This document shows positions 24,550 to 43,823 of a stretch of 63,513 nt of DNA, one piece after another. The position numbers and the translations under genes were made by a program. The stretch lies in IMG/VR virus record IMGVR_UViG_2585427777_000008, positions 1 through 63,513 of that record; one strand, 5' to 3'. This DNA is from a virus (taxonomy: Duplodnaviria > Heunggongvirae > Uroviricota > Caudoviricetes). The notes below the pieces were generated by a model. The model was not told the origin of the DNA, searched no databases, and saw nothing but the letters and a program-made list of their open reading frames with translations. Each line of letters begins with the position of its first letter. Position 1 is the stretch's first letter.

Positions 24550-24643
24550 AATACTGACTGTTGCGCCCTGGCATTATCGTGGGGTATATTTCTACGGCAC
24601 CTTAGAAAAACGGGTGCCGGGATTGGAACCCCGGATAATGTCA

Positions 24644-24667
24644 AAGGCGACACAGACGCCGAAAGCG
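24644..24667 (+). terminator. rho-independent terminator
   Basis: AGACGC-CGAAA-GCGTCT hairpin followed by seven T residues. Confidence 0.65.
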
Positions 24668-24689
24668 TCTTTTTTTGTGTCACGCCATC

Positions 24690-26039: not shown

Positions 26040-26915
26040 CTAGTCCTGCTGACAATTCAGGAACATAAACGCACGTTTGTCCGTTAAATCCGTAACATAA
26101 TATTCACGAATACCATTCGGTTTTATGCGGCGAGCATACACAAACTTATGAACTGGCTGGTCGCTGCCATAACTAACCTCAGTGCGAAATTCATCGACCG
26201 TGCTACCATCCTTTTCTGTCTCTTTGCGTATCAGCTTATTGTTCAGAACTGGTTGAGTCTCATCCATTCCGCTAAATGCATCTTGCCCGGTACTATTACC
26301 CCGGTTGCCACGTGGTAAATCCCACGAGAAATAAGTCCCATAGTCTGTAATTACCTGATCCCACGCCCCGGCTTCATCCATATAATGACTACGCTTCCCT
26401 TGGTATGTTACGTCAACCTTACAGGAAAACGTTGGCGCGCTATTACTTGCAGCAGAGGCCGTTGAAGATTGTGTAACACTGCCATTGTTGGCATTTCCAT
26501 AGTTCCAGCCATCATGCAACGCTTTAACCCACAGATTAGTCAGGGATAGCGTAACATCATTCCCCAGCGCCTGGCTGATTCGAAGCCTCTGTATCCGACG
26601 CAACCCATACTCATAGGCTTCATCGTCATTAATCACTCGCCCACGTTGAGCGGCTACCACCCCAGATTGCCACGCACGATTAATTTCACGAATAAGATAT
26701 ACTTGTGGATCAACTCCGTATCTGTTGTATTCATAGTAAAGGCTCATTGCGCCATGTTGGCTCTGGTATTCATTAGCCCATGATATAACCGCGTTTCTTC
26801 CATAATCCGCGAGCGCAGAATGACTTGACAGAAGAAGAGCAACGCCAACAGTCTTCAGTAATTTGAATCGGAATAACTTTTTAATAATACGATTGGGAAA
26901 TATGTTTTTGCTCAC
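26040..26915 (-). CDS. secreted protein of unknown function (moron-like)
   Basis: 291 aa; basic N-terminus, hydrophobic core and ALA cleavage-like site (LLLSSHSALA-DYG). Opposite strand to both neighbours, with AT-rich flanks. Confidence 0.6.
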   Translation of the reverse strand: MSKNIFPNRIIKKLFRFKLLKTVGVALLLSSHSALADYGRNAVISWANEYQSQHGAMSLYYEYNRYGVDPQVYLIREINRAWQSGVVAAQRGRVINDDEAYEYGLRRIQRLRISQALGNDVTLSLTNLWVKALHDGWNYGNANNGSVTQSSTASAASNSAPTFSCKVDVTYQGKRSHYMDEAGAWDQVITDYGTYFSWDLPRGNRGNSTGQDAFSGMDETQPVLNNKLIRKETEKDGSTVDEFRTEVSYGSDQPVHKFVYARRIKPNGIREYYVTDLTDKRAFMFLNCQQD

Positions 26916-27143
26916 TTTTCAACCTTTCACCACAAATCAAGACCAACAACCCAATAATAATAACTAACCACTCTGTTTTTTTGATAAGCACCAAATCGTT
27001 TACAAAAAAAATAGCAAATGACTATTGACACTATTCTGGAAATCACAAACTGCACATAATCCATCGCGCTAACGGCTCCCGTTGAAGGTTCTTTTGACGA
27101 TTAACTTTCAGCCGAAGCGCGGTAGGGAGTCATAACGCCAAAG

Positions 27144-27167
27144 CAGGCCGCCATGTGCGGCCTTTTT
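27144..27167 (+). terminator. rho-independent terminator or attenuator upstream of the 27197 gene
   Basis: GGCCGC-CATGT-GCGGCC hairpin followed by TTTTTTT. Confidence 0.5.
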
Positions 27168-27196
27168 TTGTATCCGTCATCCGTGGAGGAAGGACA

Positions 27197-27850
27197 ATGG
27201 AAAAGATCGCAATATTCAGCCTGACCACCAGCAAGCCTCAAATGCTCACTGCAATACTGAAAGACGGTGCTCTCATTATTAACGAAGTAAAACCCCTTCC
27301 CGCGTCAGCATTGGAACAAAAGCAAAAAATTCCTCCAGCTATAGCAGCCCTGCGGAAAAGCAAATTTAAGGTGCTGGTTGACGAAATTACGCCAACGATC
27401 TCCGCTGGCACCGGAGCAAGCCAGGTAACACTCAAGACACGTCATGCCGACGGCAGAGCTGCGATCATCGTAGGGATGGAAAGATACAGAGAGCTAAAAC
27501 TCCAGAAGCTATTATCCCTGCCGCAAAATAACAAAGGTGCTTTCGAAATCCCCGACTCCATCGTTGACACCGAATACAACGGTAACGGAGAAGAAGTCTA
27601 CAGGGTGAACTGGCAGGATATCAGGCCGGAGCATATTCTGATGATCCTGTGTTGCTACGCGACCGTATACCACAACGTTGCCAGTGCAGATTACGTAGAG
27701 CAGATGACCGGCACAGTCGAGAAAGAGCAAAAAACAGGCATACTCGCTTCGTTCCTGTCCATTATTGGGCATGAAAAAGTTGAAGCAGGCACCTCCCAGC
27801 CAAAGTCACTGGCTGGGAAAGAAGTTGATGAAGATACCGTGATACTTTGA
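27197..27850 (+). CDS. hypothetical protein
   Basis: Start taken at MEKIAIF (RBS GGAGGAAGG) rather than the overlapping upstream ATG; 217 aa. Confidence 0.5.
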   Translation: MEKIAIFSLTTSKPQMLTAILKDGALIINEVKPLPASALEQKQKIPPAIAALRKSKFKVLVDEITPTISAGTGASQVTLKTRHADGRAAIIVGMERYRELKLQKLLSLPQNNKGAFEIPDSIVDTEYNGNGEEVYRVNWQDIRPEHILMILCCYATVYHNVASADYVEQMTGTVEKEQKTGILASFLSIIGHEKVEAGTSQPKSLAGKEVDEDTVIL

Positions 27851-28178
27851 TCACATTAGTAGCTTTGTTAACTCCCTCAATACCAGGTAGAAGAGTAACA
27901 AAAATATTGACGCCAGTATTTGAGTGGACAATGAAGCGTTCATAAACAGATCAATTAGCATTAATAATTCGAAGATAACATCCATGTCATTCACTCCGTT
28001 TAATTTTTAATCTAATGCCAGCAAATGAAGCTGGCCCCCGCATAAAGATTAATGAAAGTCACTTGTCACCAGTGAGGGGATTTATGAACCACATCCCCCT
28101 GAACTGGTGGCCAGTCTGTTTCTCGCATTTCACACCCTGCATACAGTTTCCACCAGGTTATGACTGAGAGGCTTTGTT

Positions 28179-28508
28179 ATGGGCTATAGCAGACTCGACG
28201 ATAGGTACATTGAAGACGATATTTTTCGTGCGCTGTTTCACCAGGAAATGATTAAGCGGGTATCGGAGTATCACTCTGATAATTTCCAGTACACGATAAA
28301 GATTGATGAAGTATATCGTTCAGACCTTGCAGCCTACAGGGCGTATGGCAATGCAGATTTGCGCTGGGTATTCCGGGTGCTGGTGGGCCATGAGTCAGAA
28401 ATGGAAGAAATGCCCGCCGGGACCACGTTAACTCTTCCTGATGTCGCATGGCTGAGGAACAAGATCCGTGATTACGCGAGCGCGGAACCGGAGATAGAAA
28501 ATGCCTGA
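28179..28508 (+). CDS. hypothetical protein
   Basis: 109-aa ORF; its stop overlaps the start of the next ORF. Confidence 0.5.
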   Translation: MGYSRLDDRYIEDDIFRALFHQEMIKRVSEYHSDNFQYTIKIDEVYRSDLAAYRAYGNADLRWVFRVLVGHESEMEEMPAGTTLTLPDVAWLRNKIRDYASAEPEIENA

Positions 28509-29697
28509 TTTCCTGAAAAACCAGGACGGGCGCTATATCACTGATGGCCTGTCCTCTAAGGACTTCACGCGTTTATTCGACCTTATCAGTAAAGAACAAA
28601 CCCGTAAGCGCCGACAAGCTCACCGGACGCTGACGCCCGGCAGACTGAGGAACAAATCCGCCGAAGATATTCTCAAGTTGGGGAAGAAGAAAGGCGGCAC
28701 GTTCTTTACGCGAGACGATCTGAAAGGCTTCGAAAAGCTACGGAGTAAAACGCGCGAAAAATATGACAGTAAGACGGCAGGCATCACATACGCCCAGCTG
28801 GTGGCATCCAGCCAGGCTATCGATATTAAGCGTGCAAATAACGCCGTGGATGACGGATCTGGTATCAAAAGAGCTACACCCGTATCTCTTCGCCACAATG
28901 TGATTAATATCCGCGTAGAAGCATCGGATATATCCGTCCACCAGCACCATATCGTCCGTATACGCTTTGAAGAATGGGATCAGATGGTCGATGACATCGC
29001 AGAAGACGATAAATCAGCTCTGAAAATCACTAAATCACTGTGCGCCGGGCGGGTGTCTTTCGATTGTGACTGTGGTCGTCATCAATACTGGTATCGTTAC
29101 ATCGCTACTGCGGGTAACTTTGCCTTGGCCCCGCCAAAAGAATACGCCTATCCAAAAGTTCGTAACCCTAAGCTACAAGGCGTCGCCTGTAAACACGTGA
29201 TCCACTCAATGACGCGGTTACAGTCCGCCAGTTGGCAAATGAGTATTGCTCGTGCGTTACAAAAGGCCGCAACGCAAATTGCATTTGGTGACGATCGCCG
29301 CCGTACAACTAAACACTTCTCAAAAGAAGACGAGAAGGAGTTTAATCGCAATCGTAGCAGTAAAACGAACGTTGAAGCCGCCAAACGCGAATGGAGGCTC
29401 TATCAGAAACGCCAGGCCGCTTTAAGCACAAAACTGGCAAAGGACAACGGGAAGATTGACAAGCTACGTGACCAGCTGACCAGGGCCAGAAAGTTGTCCG
29501 ATGCACAGAAAAAACGGGCAGCAGCAAAAGAAGCAGCCTTGCAACGTGAGAAACAGAAAAACAAGGAGCTTCAGCAACGCCTTGCCGATCAATTCGCACT
29601 GAAGAAGCAAGCGTTCATTGATGCACTGGTCATGGCAGGAACGTCACCTGAGCAAGCTGAAAAAATGTTTATGGAGTACGTGAAGAAAGGTTCTTGA
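28501..29697 (+). CDS. hypothetical protein with SWIM-like zinc-finger signature and basic coiled-coil C-terminus
   Basis: 398 aa; CxC...CxH pattern (FDCDCGRHQYW...GVACKHVIH) followed by a Lys/Arg/Gln/Glu-rich helical tail. Confidence 0.5.
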   Translation: MPDFLKNQDGRYITDGLSSKDFTRLFDLISKEQTRKRRQAHRTLTPGRLRNKSAEDILKLGKKKGGTFFTRDDLKGFEKLRSKTREKYDSKTAGITYAQLVASSQAIDIKRANNAVDDGSGIKRATPVSLRHNVINIRVEASDISVHQHHIVRIRFEEWDQMVDDIAEDDKSALKITKSLCAGRVSFDCDCGRHQYWYRYIATAGNFALAPPKEYAYPKVRNPKLQGVACKHVIHSMTRLQSASWQMSIARALQKAATQIAFGDDRRRTTKHFSKEDEKEFNRNRSSKTNVEAAKREWRLYQKRQAALSTKLAKDNGKIDKLRDQLTRARKLSDAQKKRAAAKEAALQREKQKNKELQQRLADQFALKKQAFIDALVMAGTSPEQAEKMFMEYVKKGS

Positions 29698-29731
29698 TTG
29701 ACAACAAAGGCGGTCATACAGACCGCCAAAC

Positions 29732-30091
29732 TCATACACCAACCAGGCTTTCAAGAGGAATGCCAAACTGGGAATGTAAACGACGAATCATAGGTAACGT
29801 TAAATTTCGTGTCCCATTTAGCACTTCGTAAACACGATTTGACTTACCAATCGCCGGTTCCAGATCCTTCACGGTCAGCCCTTGCTGTTCCATACGGAAT
29901 TTAATGGCTTCAATAGGTGATGGTGGCTCAATTGGGTAATGCTTTTTCTCGTACTCTTCAATGAGCAGGCACATTACTTCAAAGAAATCGCCTTCCGGTG
30001 TGTTCATTTCCGGTTCGTTATCGAACATCGGTTCGACCGCACGCAGTGCGGCCTCATAATCTTGTTCTGTACGGATAGGTTTAATGTTCAT
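29732..30091 (-). CDS. higA: HigA-like antitoxin (HTH)
   Basis: 119-aa ORF immediately downstream of the toxin, with a C-terminal HTH-like segment. Confidence 0.75.
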   Translation of the reverse strand: MNIKPIRTEQDYEAALRAVEPMFDNEPEMNTPEGDFFEVMCLLIEEYEKKHYPIEPPSPIEAIKFRMEQQGLTVKDLEPAIGKSNRVYEVLNGTRNLTLPMIRRLHSQFGIPLESLVGV

Positions 30092-30094
30092 GAT

Positions 30095-30397
30095 TTACTC
30101 CAGTTCTATTGTATCAGCTTCAATGGCATCGTATTCCTTATGTGTTCCAATAAACTTAACGAACATCCATCCTCGCTGATAAGCAATTGCGACAATTAAC
30201 CTGTAATCATTTCCCTTAATATTGAACACCACGCGCCTGTTTTTAAGGATGCTGGCTGTCCGGTACTGTTCTTTGATCTCAGCCGGATTTTTCCAGTCAG
30301 CCTTTGTTGCTTCATCAACCCATGCCTTTAATGGCTGTTCTGCATCGGGATTCTTCGCCCAGAAATCCCTTAGTGTTTTTACCGAAATTATTTTCAT
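30095..30397 (-). CDS. higB: HigB-like toxin (RelE/ParE superfamily)
   Basis: Start taken at MKIISVK with upstream AAGGA; C-terminal RVVFNIKGNDYRLIVAIAYQRGWMFVKFIGTHKEYD matches the HigB family pattern; toxin-first gene order typical of higBA. Confidence 0.8.
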   Translation of the reverse strand: MKIISVKTLRDFWAKNPDAEQPLKAWVDEATKADWKNPAEIKEQYRTASILKNRRVVFNIKGNDYRLIVAIAYQRGWMFVKFIGTHKEYDAIEADTIELE

Positions 30398-30426
30398 CAC
30401 AGATTCCTTCTCGCTGAAAGTATAGT

Positions 30427-30473
30427 AGTCCCAATATGGGACAATGTAAAGCACTTTAGTCCCATGCTGGGAT
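30427..30473. promoter_or_regulatory. two palindromic operator-like sites in the higBA promoter region
   Basis: AGTCCCAATATGGGAC and TCCCATGCTGGGA lie 30-75 bp upstream of the higB start. Confidence 0.5.
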
Positions 30474-30542
30474 ATGAATTGAAATCACAATCTCCAGACA
30501 ATGCACCCTCGATACCTGATAAATCGACCTTTGAGGATGCTT

Positions 30543-31334
30543 ATGGGCCGTTTTGACGAATGGTTTGCTGACGATGCAAACCTGGCAAGTAAGGAGTCAG
30601 AACATGACAGCACGCAGAGAGAAACGCCAGCGACGGTTGAAGCGGATGCAGGAGGCGCGCCGGAACATGGCAATACCGGTTCGGATTCATTCAGCATTCT
30701 GGAAGAGCAACCCGCCGCCAAAGCTGATAGCCATGATAATTTTGCTGATAGCAACGGTGGCCTTACTCCGGATGCTGGCGAATCAGATATAGCCATACTT
30801 CCATCTTCCCTGGCTGGCAGAGAACCGACTCCACAGTTAAAAGCACGCTATAACGGGCATAAAGCCTTTAACGACCAAATCCGCGCAGACTGGATGCTAA
30901 TTATTGAATCCAGCCCAGACGCGTTTCAGGCTCTCTTATATCGACCAGATGTTGGCACATATGGGGTAGTCAGCGACGAAACAGGAGAAGAGTCATTCAC
31001 CGAACTGGATAACAACCAACGCGAACTGACTTACCAGGAACCTGAAATCGTTTATGTGCTGGATAACCCTGACGGGCGTGACTCTTTCCATGCGATTGAC
31101 GCAGACGGTGAGCAGGATGGCTTAACCGATGATGTTCTGATTCTGCGTATTGCAGCAAATAACGTCCCCGTCGGATCAATTCTTGAATGGAATGAAGAGA
31201 TGGTAAACGGCGTAGCCCGCCGCTGGTGGTACGTGCACCGTATTTTTAGCTACGGCACACAGCATGTTGGTTCGCTTTACTACTGCATACCTGCCAGGAA
31301 TTTTGATACGACTCAAAACGGAGTGATCGAATGA
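30543..31334 (+). CDS. hypothetical protein, acidic N-terminal half (possible virion protein)
   Basis: Start taken at MGRFDEWF (RBS GAGGA) rather than the overlapping upstream ATG; first of four coupled ORFs ending in the spike gene. Confidence 0.5.
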   Translation: MGRFDEWFADDANLASKESEHDSTQRETPATVEADAGGAPEHGNTGSDSFSILEEQPAAKADSHDNFADSNGGLTPDAGESDIAILPSSLAGREPTPQLKARYNGHKAFNDQIRADWMLIIESSPDAFQALLYRPDVGTYGVVSDETGEESFTELDNNQRELTYQEPEIVYVLDNPDGRDSFHAIDADGEQDGLTDDVLILRIAANNVPVGSILEWNEEMVNGVARRWWYVHRIFSYGTQHVGSLYYCIPARNFDTTQNGVIE

Positions 31335-32098
31335 CTTCAAATAAAACCCTCCTGGCGCGAACAGGTGAATGGCAAACCTCACGCACAGGAAAATTCCAGA
31401 CCACGGGCTTTGAAAACGTGGATAACGCGTTTGCTACGCTAATCAGCAATATCTTTTCTGATATCTTACTGGTGGCCCCCGCGCCGGAAGAAAAACGCTT
31501 TGCGTCATTCCTGAATCGTCCACCAGCAGAGCGTGTCTATGTGGCCCGTTTCGACAATGCGATCGAGTTTCTTAAAGCAGTTCGTCGCGCAAATGCTGGG
31601 CAAGGAAGAAAACCGGAAAACCAGAACATTAATCGCGATGCCTTGCCGTTGATCAACATCTCCCGGTCTATGGATATCAGCTATATCAATGATGATCAGC
31701 AGATAGACCGCAGGCAAACTGCCAGTTTTTGCAACCCGGATACTGGAATGCCTTTAGCGACTCTGGAATACACCCAGGCTATCCTGACTTATGACGTTAC
31801 GTTAATGGCTACTGATAAAGCAACCATGAGTCTGATGTGTAATTCGCTGGGCGCGCGGCTCCGCCTGATGACCGGAACACAATTTGAGGCAAACACTAAC
31901 CTGGTGCGTGTTCCTGTTCCTCTGATTTGCTCCATTCAGGATGCTAAAGACGTTGGATTTACGGATGTTTCGGCACCAGTGGGAGAAGAGAGGATTTATG
32001 CTACTCAGGCACCTGTAAGCGTCATTGCGGATGTAATCACAGCCTGGGAATTGGACGCGAAACGCGTTGTTACTGAAACCTCGCTGGCTATGGGGTAA
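31331..32098 (+). CDS. hypothetical protein (probable baseplate/tail module member)
   Basis: 255-aa ORF coupled to neighbours. Confidence 0.45.
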   Translation: MTSNKTLLARTGEWQTSRTGKFQTTGFENVDNAFATLISNIFSDILLVAPAPEEKRFASFLNRPPAERVYVARFDNAIEFLKAVRRANAGQGRKPENQNINRDALPLINISRSMDISYINDDQQIDRRQTASFCNPDTGMPLATLEYTQAILTYDVTLMATDKATMSLMCNSLGARLRLMTGTQFEANTNLVRVPVPLICSIQDAKDVGFTDVSAPVGEERIYATQAPVSVIADVITAWELDAKRVVTETSLAMG

Positions 32099-32101
32099 TC
32101 A

Positions 32102-33082
32102 ATGTCCCAGGAGTTACAACAATACTTCCTCCAGTCAGTCACAATTAACGATAACAAAGTGCCACGAGACTGGATTTTTACCGCAGTGTACGTGGAAAAG
32201 AGCAGCCTTAAAGCGCCGTTATTGAAGCTGGAAATTCATGACATGACAGGCACCATAATTGATGACTGGAAAGCTAAATACGGTGCATCGCTGGTGGCTG
32301 AAATGGGCGATCCAAACGGTAATGCAGGCACTTTTAAAACAACTTTTTTTGTTACGTCAGCAATGTTGGCTGGGGATGTAGTTACCGTTATTGCGGTCAG
32401 TGAAGACGTGCATCGGTTTAAGATCCCCTCCCCTCGCACCAATCTACACACGAACAAAACGCCGGACACCATATTCAAGGCGTATAGCGGCAATCTTAAA
32501 ATTTCCAGCAGTGTCTTAAAGCGTGCGGTTACATATCACCTGAACGCAGGCGACAAACCGTCAAAAATGCTCTCGCAGATAGCGCGAGACAAAGGTGCAT
32601 TATGTTGGGTATGCCGGGGGGAATTTAACTTTTACACCCTGGCTGATCTGATGAAGCAAACGCCATCATTTACCTACGAGGGGAATAACCCTAAAGCAGA
32701 ATACACTTTGTCCAAAATGCGCCTACTCCAACAGGAACATGCGACAACAGCAAAGAATCAATATCGTTTTGTTGGGTATTCCATGACCGATGGCTACGTC
32801 GAATATGGCGATAGCTCACTCCCAGTGCGTTATATATCCGACTCTGATATGGAAACTCTTCGCAATATGCAGCTGTCTCTCGTCCCCAAAATGGATATAG
32901 AAGTCGCAGGCAATCCGGATATAAAACCGGGAATGGTAATAGAGATTATCGTATACCGCTATGACCAGGAAAACCGCATTGATGAATCAATGCCCCGCAA
33001 GCTGATAGTAAAAAATGTTGCGCACTTTGAAGACCGCGTAGGCTACACAACACGAATGATATTAGGAGTGCCGAACAAATGA
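32102..33082 (+). CDS. hypothetical protein (probable baseplate/tail module member)
   Basis: 326-aa ORF coupled to the downstream spike-like gene. Confidence 0.45.
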   Translation: MSQELQQYFLQSVTINDNKVPRDWIFTAVYVEKSSLKAPLLKLEIHDMTGTIIDDWKAKYGASLVAEMGDPNGNAGTFKTTFFVTSAMLAGDVVTVIAVSEDVHRFKIPSPRTNLHTNKTPDTIFKAYSGNLKISSSVLKRAVTYHLNAGDKPSKMLSQIARDKGALCWVCRGEFNFYTLADLMKQTPSFTYEGNNPKAEYTLSKMRLLQQEHATTAKNQYRFVGYSMTDGYVEYGDSSLPVRYISDSDMETLRNMQLSLVPKMDIEVAGNPDIKPGMVIEIIVYRYDQENRIDESMPRKLIVKNVAHFEDRVGYTTRMILGVPNK

Positions 33083-35361: not shown

Positions 35362-36259
35362 ATCTATAGCAAGCATAGCCATAGAAAAACAGGATACGAT
35401 GGCTGAAATTAGCTATATGCGCACCATTCGGACTCCGGATGAATATGAGCGTCCGATATTCAAATGGGTAGGTGGTAAATTCTCAGAATTGCCTACAGTG
35501 CTTGAGCATCTACCACACGGTAAGCGGTTAATAGAACCATTCGTTGGTGGCGGTTCCGTATTTACGAATGCAGGATTTCGCCACAACCTGCTTAATGATA
35601 TTAACGGTGACCTGATTAACTTCTATCAGACATTGCAGCGAGAAGGACATTCGCTCGTCACGCTGTCATATAGTTTTTTCAAAAATTACAACAACGCTGA
35701 CGCTTACCTCGAAGTGCGTGAGGCATTTAACAGAGGAAAATATGACCAGCTACATCATGCTGCCGCATTTTTGTACCTTAATCGTCACTGTTTTAATGGC
35801 GTAACGCGGTACAACCAAAATGGCGAGTTCAACGTGGGGTATGGCAAATACAAAGCGCCCTACTTCCCACATGCAGAGATGGAGGCATTTTTGGCTGATG
35901 ACGTACTCAAAAACACTTCCTTTGTATCAGGAGACTTTGCTAGCGTCATCGAGGCGGCTGGTGAAGACGATGTGATTTTTTGTGATCCGCCGTATGAACC
36001 GCTTCCGGATACAGAGGGATTTACCAGCTATTCAGGAAATAGCTTCCGTTTCGATGAACAAAAACGGCTTGTATCACTGTTGGTGGATGCCCACCAGCGC
36101 GGCGCTAAGGTAGTGATAACAAATAGTGGTGCTCCAAACATCCGTGAGCTATATGAAGGAAACGGGTTTAAAGTACATCATATGGCAGCCAGACGGTCGG
36201 TTTCCTGCAAGGCGTCAACACGTGTAGTTGCTAACGATATAATTGCAATAATGAAGTAA
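35354..36259 (+). CDS. dam: DNA adenine methyltransferase (Dam-like)
   Basis: Start at MSKSIAS (RBS AAGGGGG). Motif I region KWVGGK...EPFVGGGSV and catalytic DPPY. Confidence 0.85.
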   Translation: MSKSIASIAIEKQDTMAEISYMRTIRTPDEYERPIFKWVGGKFSELPTVLEHLPHGKRLIEPFVGGGSVFTNAGFRHNLLNDINGDLINFYQTLQREGHSLVTLSYSFFKNYNNADAYLEVREAFNRGKYDQLHHAAAFLYLNRHCFNGVTRYNQNGEFNVGYGKYKAPYFPHAEMEAFLADDVLKNTSFVSGDFASVIEAAGEDDVIFCDPPYEPLPDTEGFTSYSGNSFRFDEQKRLVSLLVDAHQRGAKVVITNSGAPNIRELYEGNGFKVHHMAARRSVSCKASTRVVANDIIAIMK

Positions 36260-36307
36260 AAAACGCCGCAGTAGCGGCGTTTACTTTTTCATGTGGCGAA
36301 ATACCTA

Positions 36308-39194: not shown

Positions 39195-39380
39195 TTCCAG
39201 ATAAGAGCCTTTTTGATGCGGGACAGGCTCTATAATGGAGTCATGAATGTTTGGCAAAGTATAACATCAATCAGACCAAATACACCTAATATTGCATCCT
39301 ATTTAACACGAAATCAGCCCCAAATTGGAACCAGATACAAAATTGCACCATAACAGCACCTAACTGGTTCCAGATTAACA
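39195..39380. repeat. centromere-like repeats upstream of parF (GGTTCCAGAT / GGAACCAGAT family)
   Basis: At least three copies of TGG(TT/AA)CCAGAT(A/T)A plus CACCA(A/T)T motifs in the 290-bp parF upstream region. Confidence 0.4.
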
Positions 39381-39401
39381 CCAATTAGACACCATTAATG
39401 C

Positions 39402-39428
39402 ATAAAAAAGGCTGCAATTTGCAGCCTT
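39402..39428 (-). terminator. rho-independent terminator after parR (minus strand)
   Basis: AAGGCTGCA...TGCAGCCTT palindrome preceded on the + strand by an A-run, i.e. followed by a T-run on the minus strand. Confidence 0.5.
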
Positions 39429-39446
39429 AAACCAGCACATCTTCTG

Positions 39447-43690: not shown

Positions 43691-43823
43691 TTAAAATTAA
43701 ACCACATAACAACACGTGTGTTAACAGATTTTATTTTACTAATGCTATTGACTAAATCACAAAGTTGGTATTGTTAGCGCGTCAAAAGAACCTTCACGCC
43801 GCGACCGAATTTAGGGCTTAACC

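Follow-up and report, generated by a model that had tools for sequence, protein, structure and literature searches.

A conserved, terminated leader RNA before the mat, 26 and 25 genes of a D6-like P1-family phage-plasmid and its predicted complementarity to the capsid mRNA

The DNA analyzed here, 63,513 nt of a tailed-phage (Caudoviricetes) record of IMG/VR (IMGVR_UViG_2585427777_000008; this whole stretch is called the window), carries three consecutive open reading frames (ORFs) on its + strand, at 27197..27850, 28179..28508 and 28501..29697, behind a short structured leader that ends in an intrinsic terminator. The coordinates and the strand of the ORFs, first given in a sequence-only reading of this DNA, were confirmed exactly. 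By homology, the ORFs are the P1-phage virion-assembly genes mat, 26 and 25, which are already known and ordinary, and the leader is, to judge from its conservation and covariation, a real and apparently undescribed RNA element. The locus is the head of a P1-family operon for the tail and for virion maturation, and the reading as a whole, in which its conserved terminated leader would also pair in trans with the capsid mRNA, is considered probable; the RNA-RNA interaction between leader and capsid mRNA, considered by itself, is given close to an even chance.

The mat leader RNA was located with a covariance model that was built on three D6-clade sequences with shared architecture and that gave a single hit in the window, at 27063..27171 on the + strand, comprising a three-way junction and the terminator. 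The conserved structure consists of an outer helix (27066-68/27136-38 and 27074-80/27125-31, +), hairpin P2 (27083-90/27103-10, +, with the loop CUUUUGACGAUU at 27091-27102) and hairpin P3 (27111-14/27120-23, +), followed by the intrinsic terminator (27146-51/27157-62, +, with U7 at 27163-69), which ends 27 nt before the ATG of mat. The terminator was predicted to have a G+C stem of 6-7 bp, a 5-nt loop and U7, the form of an intrinsic terminator, with a folding energy of -12.1 kcal/mol (z -3.6) that was matched by 0/200 shuffles, and its stem was paired in 16/16 distinct relatives. Both the strong terminator and the terminated short RNA of about 100 nt that the sequence-only reading had proposed at this place were thus borne out, the latter as a conserved, covarying, structured RNA with a predicted length of ~103 nt, counted from a predicted transcription start near 27067.

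About 170 nt upstream of mat, including the terminator, were conserved far beyond the D6 clade. The covariance model matched the site before mat in Salmonella-, Leclercia-, Enterobacter-, Pantoea-, Rosenbergiella- and Xenorhabdus-type relatives with E values of 1e-31 to 1e-5, and P1 and Erwinia L019 were the only relatives searched in which it did not find the leader. In the model-guided alignment of 16 distinct sequences, 88.3% of the cells were paired, compared with 75.3% in shuffles (0/500 shuffles as good) and 35-51% in slid controls of the alignment; 18 of the 28 leader pairs, and 17 of the 22 in the junction alone, changed on both sides. Guidance by the covariance model was required, RNAalifold on a plain MAFFT alignment having returned the terminator only. 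The minimum-free-energy fold of the window leader (AUCGCGCU/AGCGCGGU and others) was rejected as the conserved structure, its pairs being formed at 63% in relatives and at 60% in shuffles. Between 27000 and 27200 no family of Rfam 15 reached its gathering threshold, the best permissive match being isrK (14.7 bits, E 2.6). A full-text search of the literature, which covered the primary P1 papers incompletely, and a preprint on P1 and hfq contained no mention of such an RNA, and its novelty is claimed for the literature covered. A second covariance model of the leader gave weak matches at 36212-36288 and 39353-39435 (+; ~20 bits, E ~0.006).

When folded singly, the leaders of most relatives and that of P1 showed an outer helix around two hairpins and then a terminator, the outer helix of the P1 leader having 10 bp. 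The P1 leader escapes the covariance model, and its homology is therefore argued only from position and architecture. In the P1 record AF234172 the annotated mat CDS starts at 2716 (L003 717-830 corresponding to 2716-2829 of the record), inside a hairpin of the leader, and extends across the terminator-like hairpin. The alignment of D6-type Mat proteins begins at an internal ATG of P1 near 2827, preceded by the U tract and by GGGGG as Shine-Dalgarno sequence, and the product of the first ORF of the window was likewise aligned from M1 with the internal-start form of P1 Mat. The start codon of P1 mat is probably misannotated.

The leader is preceded by a late-type promoter at 27040..27060 (+), made up of the box AAATCACAAAC (27040-27050), the spacer TGCA and the -10 hexamer CATAAT (27055-27060). 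Box and -10 are conserved in relatives, and each clade has the box 4 nt upstream of the -10 before the leader. The motif AAATCACA[AC]A[CG]-N4-(-10) was present at four sites of the window (27040, 43754, 52389 and 59766), all on the + strand and each with an ORF downstream; the site at 43754..43774 (+, AAATCACAAAG-TTGG-TATTGT) is the late-type promoter of the capsid operon, and its equivalent in P1 is the annotated LP23. The geometry is equal to that of the annotated P1 late promoters LPmat, LP26 and LP23 (-22 box, 4 nt, -10), with a box near -22, no -35 element and repetition before late operons, although the box of the window is only half-similar to the P1 late-promoter palindrome AAGTNACTT, sharing its left half. 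The four-site motif is probably a D6-type late (Lpa-like) promoter. As for the TTGACA promoter named in the sequence-only reading, the hexamer exists, one base from the position given there, at 27025..27030 (+), and conservation with D6 begins with it. The hexamer may be a sigma-70 -35 element, although 24 nt separate it from the -10, the corresponding distance in P1 Pmat (TTGACA-19 nt-CAGAAT) being 19 nt; it was set aside as such an element because no -10 hexamer lies 16-18 nt downstream and a sigma-70 scan called no promoter. A P1-type -22 box, AAATGACTA at 27016-27024, identical to that of P1 LP26, was also dropped as a promoter because it is not conserved in D6, and a scan for sites resembling the P1 C1 operator found none near the leader.

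The 5' strand and loop of P2 (27083..27099, +, UGAAGGUUCUUUUGACG) form a candidate seed, with a perfect 17-nt reverse complement at 43780..43796 (+). This complementary site corresponds to about +1 to +16 of the predicted late transcript for the capsid (gene 23) and lies 28-44 nt before the GTG start codon (43824) of the gene 23 homologue, a major capsid protein of 565 aa. The site is positioned 6 nt after the -10 of the 43754 promoter and before gene 23, so that the late transcript of the capsid gene would begin with it. A search of the window for complements of the leader with no more than 3 mismatches gave 2 matches against 0.16 expected. The predicted energy of the duplex between leader and capsid mRNA was -28.9 kcal/mol, compared with -5.1 for the P2 hairpin alone, and the target region was predicted to be unpaired. 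A duplexfold scan of the whole window was uninformative.

The mat leaders of nine other genomes were compared with the upstream regions of the capsid genes on the same contig or plasmid, giving a set of 10 genomes in 7 sequence-distinct clades, P1 included. A perfect complement of 9-17 nt was present in all 10, always with P2 as the leader side. Its longest extent was 11-16 nt in three D6-clade variants, 12 nt in Pantoea pEuc3, 11 nt (15/16) in Leclercia pE1_003, 14 nt in an Enterobacter-type virus, 9 nt with a further 7 nt in the adjacent stretch in the Xenorhabdus type L079/L129, 9 nt in the Xenorhabdus type L078/L127, and 10 nt (13 with one G.U pair) in P1. On the capsid side the site immediately followed the late promoter in 10/10 genomes, 43-50 nt upstream of the start codon. 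Each pair of leader and capsid region outdid at least 98.7% of its shuffles (P <= 0.013 each). The paired sequence was specific to the clade (UUUUGAC, UUUUGGC, UCUUCGAC, and CCCUUUUC in P1), and the cognate capsid site was the longest match of the leader in 7 of the 8 genomes compared, the leader of one Xenorhabdus type tying with a non-cognate site. Positions of the duplexes other than Watson-Crick pairs comprised 6 G.U, 0 A.C and 2 others. Complementarity to the target was thus conserved through co-variation in 10/10 genomes, the pattern by which a trans-acting small RNA (sRNA) was to be recognized. Pairing of the leader with the C4 or the isrK-like RNA of the window was no better than that of shuffled sequences.

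These observations would fit the following course of events. Most transcripts from the late promoter would stop at the terminator and free an RNA of ~103 nt, and the remaining transcripts would read through and express the operon. In the freed leader the 5' strand and loop of P2, a weak hairpin, would pair with the capsid late mRNA over its first 16-17 nt, which are predicted to be unstructured, and with leader and capsid mRNA arising from the same type of promoter, expression of the tail operon and of the capsid would be coupled. Pairing may alter the stability or translation of the capsid mRNA; reciprocally, the capsid mRNA may unfold the junction and change read-through. In its most general form, put at slightly below an even chance, the proposal states that in all P1-like phages and phage-plasmids, P1 included, an RNA of ~100 nt pairs with the 5' end of the capsid mRNA and balances the production of heads and tails, that the two sites have been kept by co-evolution since the common ancestor of P1 and D6, and that the RNA has escaped notice in P1 in part through the annotation of mat, whose ORF begins within the leader.

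An unlikely but substantial alternative is that the leader acts only in cis, the promoter-proximal terminator gating the late tail operon and the junction serving as the target of an antitermination factor or modifying RNA polymerase; on this view the sequence that matches over 17 bp at the capsid promoter would not be an RNA target but a second, inverted copy of a double-stranded DNA (dsDNA) site for a late regulator. Such an arrangement would suit a structured element at the extreme 5' end of the transcript, and a strong terminator between the promoter and an essential gene, a position that means read-through must somehow be provided. Attenuator-antiterminator control has also been proposed for the adjacent P1 gene ref (Windle et al. 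1988, as cited in PMC10695390). The stem of the terminator, GGCCGC/GCGGCC, was near-invariant across clades in which Mat is 40-55% identical, 5 of its 6 pairs never varying, which suggests sequence-specific recognition beyond simple termination and counts as a hint in favor of control in cis. The loop and the U tract of the terminator were variable, and the U tract of Pantoea was interrupted (UUUCGCCUUUU). Against control in cis, no alternative antiterminator pairing was found.

The co-variation of the two sites would be accounted for equally well by inverted identity of DNA. Protein sites, however, tend to vary among their copies in one genome and to be conserved from genome to genome, whereas the leader and capsid sites are identical within a genome and divergent between genomes, and the interior mismatches were 6 G.U and 0 A.C. 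The position is also unlike that of a common regulator site, at +1..+17 of the capsid promoter and, inverted, at +17..+33 of the mat promoter, and the other two late promoters of the window lack the site. It is solely from the 6:0 excess of G.U over A.C, together with the identity within genomes and divergence between them, that RNA pairing is argued to be the better description of these sequences than a DNA site.

Several points weigh against pairing in trans. A DNA-binding late regulator that recognizes both promoter-proximal sites predicts the same co-variation equally well, since two complementary RNA segments are, at the level of dsDNA, one site present twice in opposite orientations. The structural alignment had been guided by the structure proposed here, by which the pair counts given above are inflated, and the covariance models miss the P1 leader. 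Inspection did not reveal an antiterminator pairing that competes with the terminator, which the operon's own transcripts would have to pass. Transcription starts, the efficiency of termination and a stable RNA of 100 nt are predictions only. Finally, a second complementarity links leader positions 27117-27123 (GCGCGGU, in P3) with 43799-43803 (CCGCG) of the capsid 5' untranslated region, and is not colinear with the main duplex; the capsid side reads ACCGCGC in some relatives, and because both sides are nearly invariant, co-variation cannot be used to test it.

A further possibility is that the terminator merely shields the mat operon from transcription of ref and the immunity region, the structure upstream of it and the capsid match having no function. 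Insulating terminators are a common arrangement, and ref lies directly upstream on the same strand in P1 and in distant relatives. The promoter, however, is located upstream of the terminator, which the operon's own transcripts would consequently encounter, and neither the compensatory changes in 17/22 pairs of the junction nor the capsid complementarity in 10/10 genomes would be expected from insulation, which is accordingly considered very improbable.

If the leader does act in trans on the capsid mRNA, it would resemble the SreA/SreB riboswitch leaders of Listeria and the attenuator RNA rnTrpL, terminated leaders that act in trans. In these systems, as predicted here, a 5' leader ends at an intrinsic terminator before its own operon and the freed RNA pairs with another mRNA; the mat leader differs in being phage-encoded, in showing no evident ligand or leader peptide, and in having as its predicted target the extreme 5' end of the capsid mRNA instead of a ribosome-binding site. 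The late-operon leader systems of lambda (PR'-tR' 6S RNA with Q antitermination) and HK022 (put RNA) are similar in that a promoter-proximal terminator heads a late morphogenetic operon and yields a short RNA unless it is read through, and in the structured 5' end. No Q-like protein or qut site was identified for the mat leader, HK022 put consists of two stem-loops in place of a three-way junction, and neither system is known for complementarity in trans to another late mRNA, unlike the mat leader. The C4 antisense RNA of P1 (RF01695; 24720-24807 in the window) is also a small P1-family RNA with short, loop-exposed complementarity to an mRNA. It has no sequence or model similarity to the mat leader, and it controls the antirepressor in the immunity region, whereas the mat leader arises from a late promoter and matches the mRNA of a structural gene.

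P1 has been a model phage for 70 years, and its late control is thought to rest on the activator Lpa alone. If true, pairing between the leader and the capsid mRNA would add a post-transcriptional layer to this control and provide an example of RNA-mediated coordination of head and tail operons. It could also help to explain why P1 virion dimensions are altered in hfq mutants (bioRxiv 10.64898/2025.12.28.696737).

The identity of the genes behind the leader was established as follows. The region 26900-29800 was 96.8% identical at the nucleotide level to Escherichia phage D6, a P1-like plasmid prophage, and 98.7% identical to plasmid II of E. coli RL465, by which the window is placed as a D6-like P1-family phage-plasmid. 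In the D6 records the three ORFs are labelled as similar to P1 mat, gene 26 and gene 25 (orf78, orf75 and orf74, whose products are 98-100% identical to those of the window), and the ORFs past the toxin-antitoxin pair as genes 7, 24, 6 and 5. The first ORF (27197..27850, +; Shine-Dalgarno sequence GGAGG at 27185-27189) encodes a homologue of the maturation control protein Mat, with 33% identity to P1 Mat over 95% coverage (tblastn, E 3e-31) and membership in PHROG 1837 (E 3.6e-94, residues 1-211). The second (28179..28508, +) encodes a homologue of P1 gp26 (40.6% identity, tblastn E 2e-14). Residues 4-99 of its product matched the Gp26 chains of the P1 cryo-EM entries 9ay5 (9ay5_S) and 9vzk at E 1e-16, and the match to PHROG 1269 (E 2e-36) assigned it to the P1 gp26/T4 gp53-like plug family, the Pfam profiles Phage_gp53 and Phage_tail_X scoring below threshold only. 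The gp26 protein is the six-fold baseplate "plug", a T4 gp53-like wedge protein that joins the wedge to the hub (PMC12810830; bioRxiv 10.1101/2025.07.21.665459). The third ORF (28501..29697, +), which overlaps the stop codon of gene 26, encodes a homologue of the "tail stability" protein gp25, with 56.7% identity to P1 gp25 over 84% of its length (tblastn, E 5e-112) and membership in PHROG 1722 (E 2.8e-196). There were 300 gp25 homologues, and those listed were mostly on contigs of ~80-100 kb. P1 gp25 gave a weak mass-spectrometry signal in virions and HHpred gave it no role (PMC9024508), and it is absent from the proteins named as modelled in the P1 cryo-EM maps (PMC12810830; bioRxiv 10.1101/2025.07.21.665459). 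Genes mat, 25 and 26 are among the known essential genes of P1 (PMC10695390).

These assignments bear on the function suggested in the sequence-only reading, namely that the three ORFs have no recognizable phage function and form an accessory cassette of defence or counter-defence cargo between the immunity region and higBA. Mat and gp25 do lack Pfam and NCBIfam matches and inserted toxin-antitoxin genes do lie nearby. The three proteins are, however, homologous to essential morphogenetic proteins of P1, one of which, gp26, has been resolved in the virion baseplate, and Mat, gp26 and gp25 matched 0 families among the PADLOC-DB models, whereas the adjacent HigB and HigA did match. Among 77 loci encoding a Mat relative at 35-100% identity, which made up the synteny sample, mat, 26 and 25 were adjacent in this order in 77/77, and were not patchily distributed; in distant clades they were contiguous with 7, 24 and 6, and with 5 where the locus extends to it. 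Homology to P1 structural proteins and conservation of the cassette at this position in relatives were the two findings that had been named in advance as refuting the cargo interpretation, which is therefore regarded as refuted and retains next to no credence.

The arrangement in relatives also indicated where accessory genes are found. In the loci L008, L010, L130 and L131 gene 25 led directly into 7, 24 and 6 (and 5 where the locus extends so far), and mat overlapped or abutted gene 26 (gap 0-9 nt) in clades with Mat identity of 56% or less. The ancestral order reconstructed from these loci is mat-26-25-7-24-6-5 in one uninterrupted operon, still seen in distant relatives. The D6-type operon of the window is, by this comparison, split by insertions, with a 329-bp spacer after mat and higBA after gene 25. 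The spacer between mat and 26 (27851..28178) was identified by gap comparison as a hotspot for insertions and has no counterpart in distant relatives; the gap measured 63 to 1668 nt across the D6 clade and contained hicAB in one relative and relE/higA in others. The toxin-antitoxin module between genes 25 and 7 (29732..30454, -) consists of higA (29732-30091) and higB (30095-30454), which matched the PADLOC profiles PD-Lambda-2_A (E 2e-41) and PD-Lambda-2_B (E 7e-43, over just the first 119 of 402 profile positions). Read against the conserved order, higBA is an insertion in the tail operon and the real accessory or defence candidate of this region. Since mat, 26 and 25 form the conserved core, the toxin-antitoxin modules are the cargo; the gene identities thereby correct a false lead, the three ORFs being core virion machinery and the modules being recurrently inserted in the gaps of the operon. 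Behind higBA the operon continues with genes 7 (stopper), 24 (tail terminator) and 6 (hub) at 30501..33082 (+), as assigned from the D6 annotation and, for gene 7, PHROG 1906, with the virion roles of the P1 products taken from PMC12810830. In P1, mat adjoins ref and is distant from 26-25-7-24-6-5, whereas in the window and most relatives it heads that operon. P1 and the window are alike in having 26 before 25, late-promoter control and ref upstream of mat, and of the two it is the window in which the operon is interrupted by the spacer and higBA. The spacer of the window also contained a very hydrophobic ORF of 47 aa on the - strand (27851-27994; PHROG 38362, function unknown) and a perfect P1-type late-promoter palindrome, AAGTCACTT, at 28056-28064.

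Searches of Mat against Pfam, NCBIfam and the PDB (sequence and profile) were empty. Its predicted structural model has the fold of the nuclease domain of the large terminase (TerL), which is RNase H-like, and no match to this domain was found at the sequence level in the Pfam and PDB profile searches. Compared with TerL nuclease domains such as that of T4 gp17 (3cpe), Mat is a stand-alone protein of 217 aa without an ATPase domain. Read from the alignment and not from a residue-level superposition, D62/E63 and D165 were invariant, and the first beta strand (residues 2-8) contained no Asp, positions 8-9 being F/I/V and S/T/C; where the catalytic Asp of TerL is expected on this strand, Mat has, on the same alignment reading, S, T or C.

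The third ORF had been described as carrying a SWIM-like zinc-finger motif and a long coiled coil. The coiled coil was recovered in the AlphaFold model of gp25 (pLDDT 82.9) as a long C-terminal helix of residues 291-378. The CxC...CxH motif is present (C189, C191, C230 and H232; codons 29065-29196), was invariant in 30 family members of 44-82% identity and has the CxCxnCxH signature of the SWIM zinc finger (PF04434), but the Pfam SWIM profile itself was not matched: gp25 of the window had no Pfam match at E <= 1 and none in NCBIfam, and the 30 gp25 members hit 53 Pfam families in all, of which the 25 with the most hits did not include SWIM. A structural neighbor search with the gp25 model gave none that was convincing. 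The fold of Mat and the zinc motif of gp25 would offer, for two essential P1 proteins of unknown function, a first structural starting point.

Upstream of the leader, nucleotide homology with D6 ends at ~27025, and the region from ant to the mat promoter is therefore taken to differ from that of D6 by an exchange; it lacks pmgF and orf80. A simB-like ORF on the - strand (26040-26915) matched PHROG 13054 in just its C-terminal half (residues 143-291). Rfam searches located two RNAs in the immunity region before icd and ant, an isrK-like RNA at 24597-24675 (62.7 bits) and, immediately after it, the C4 antisense RNA (77.1 bits); a tRNA gene was located at 1383-1455.

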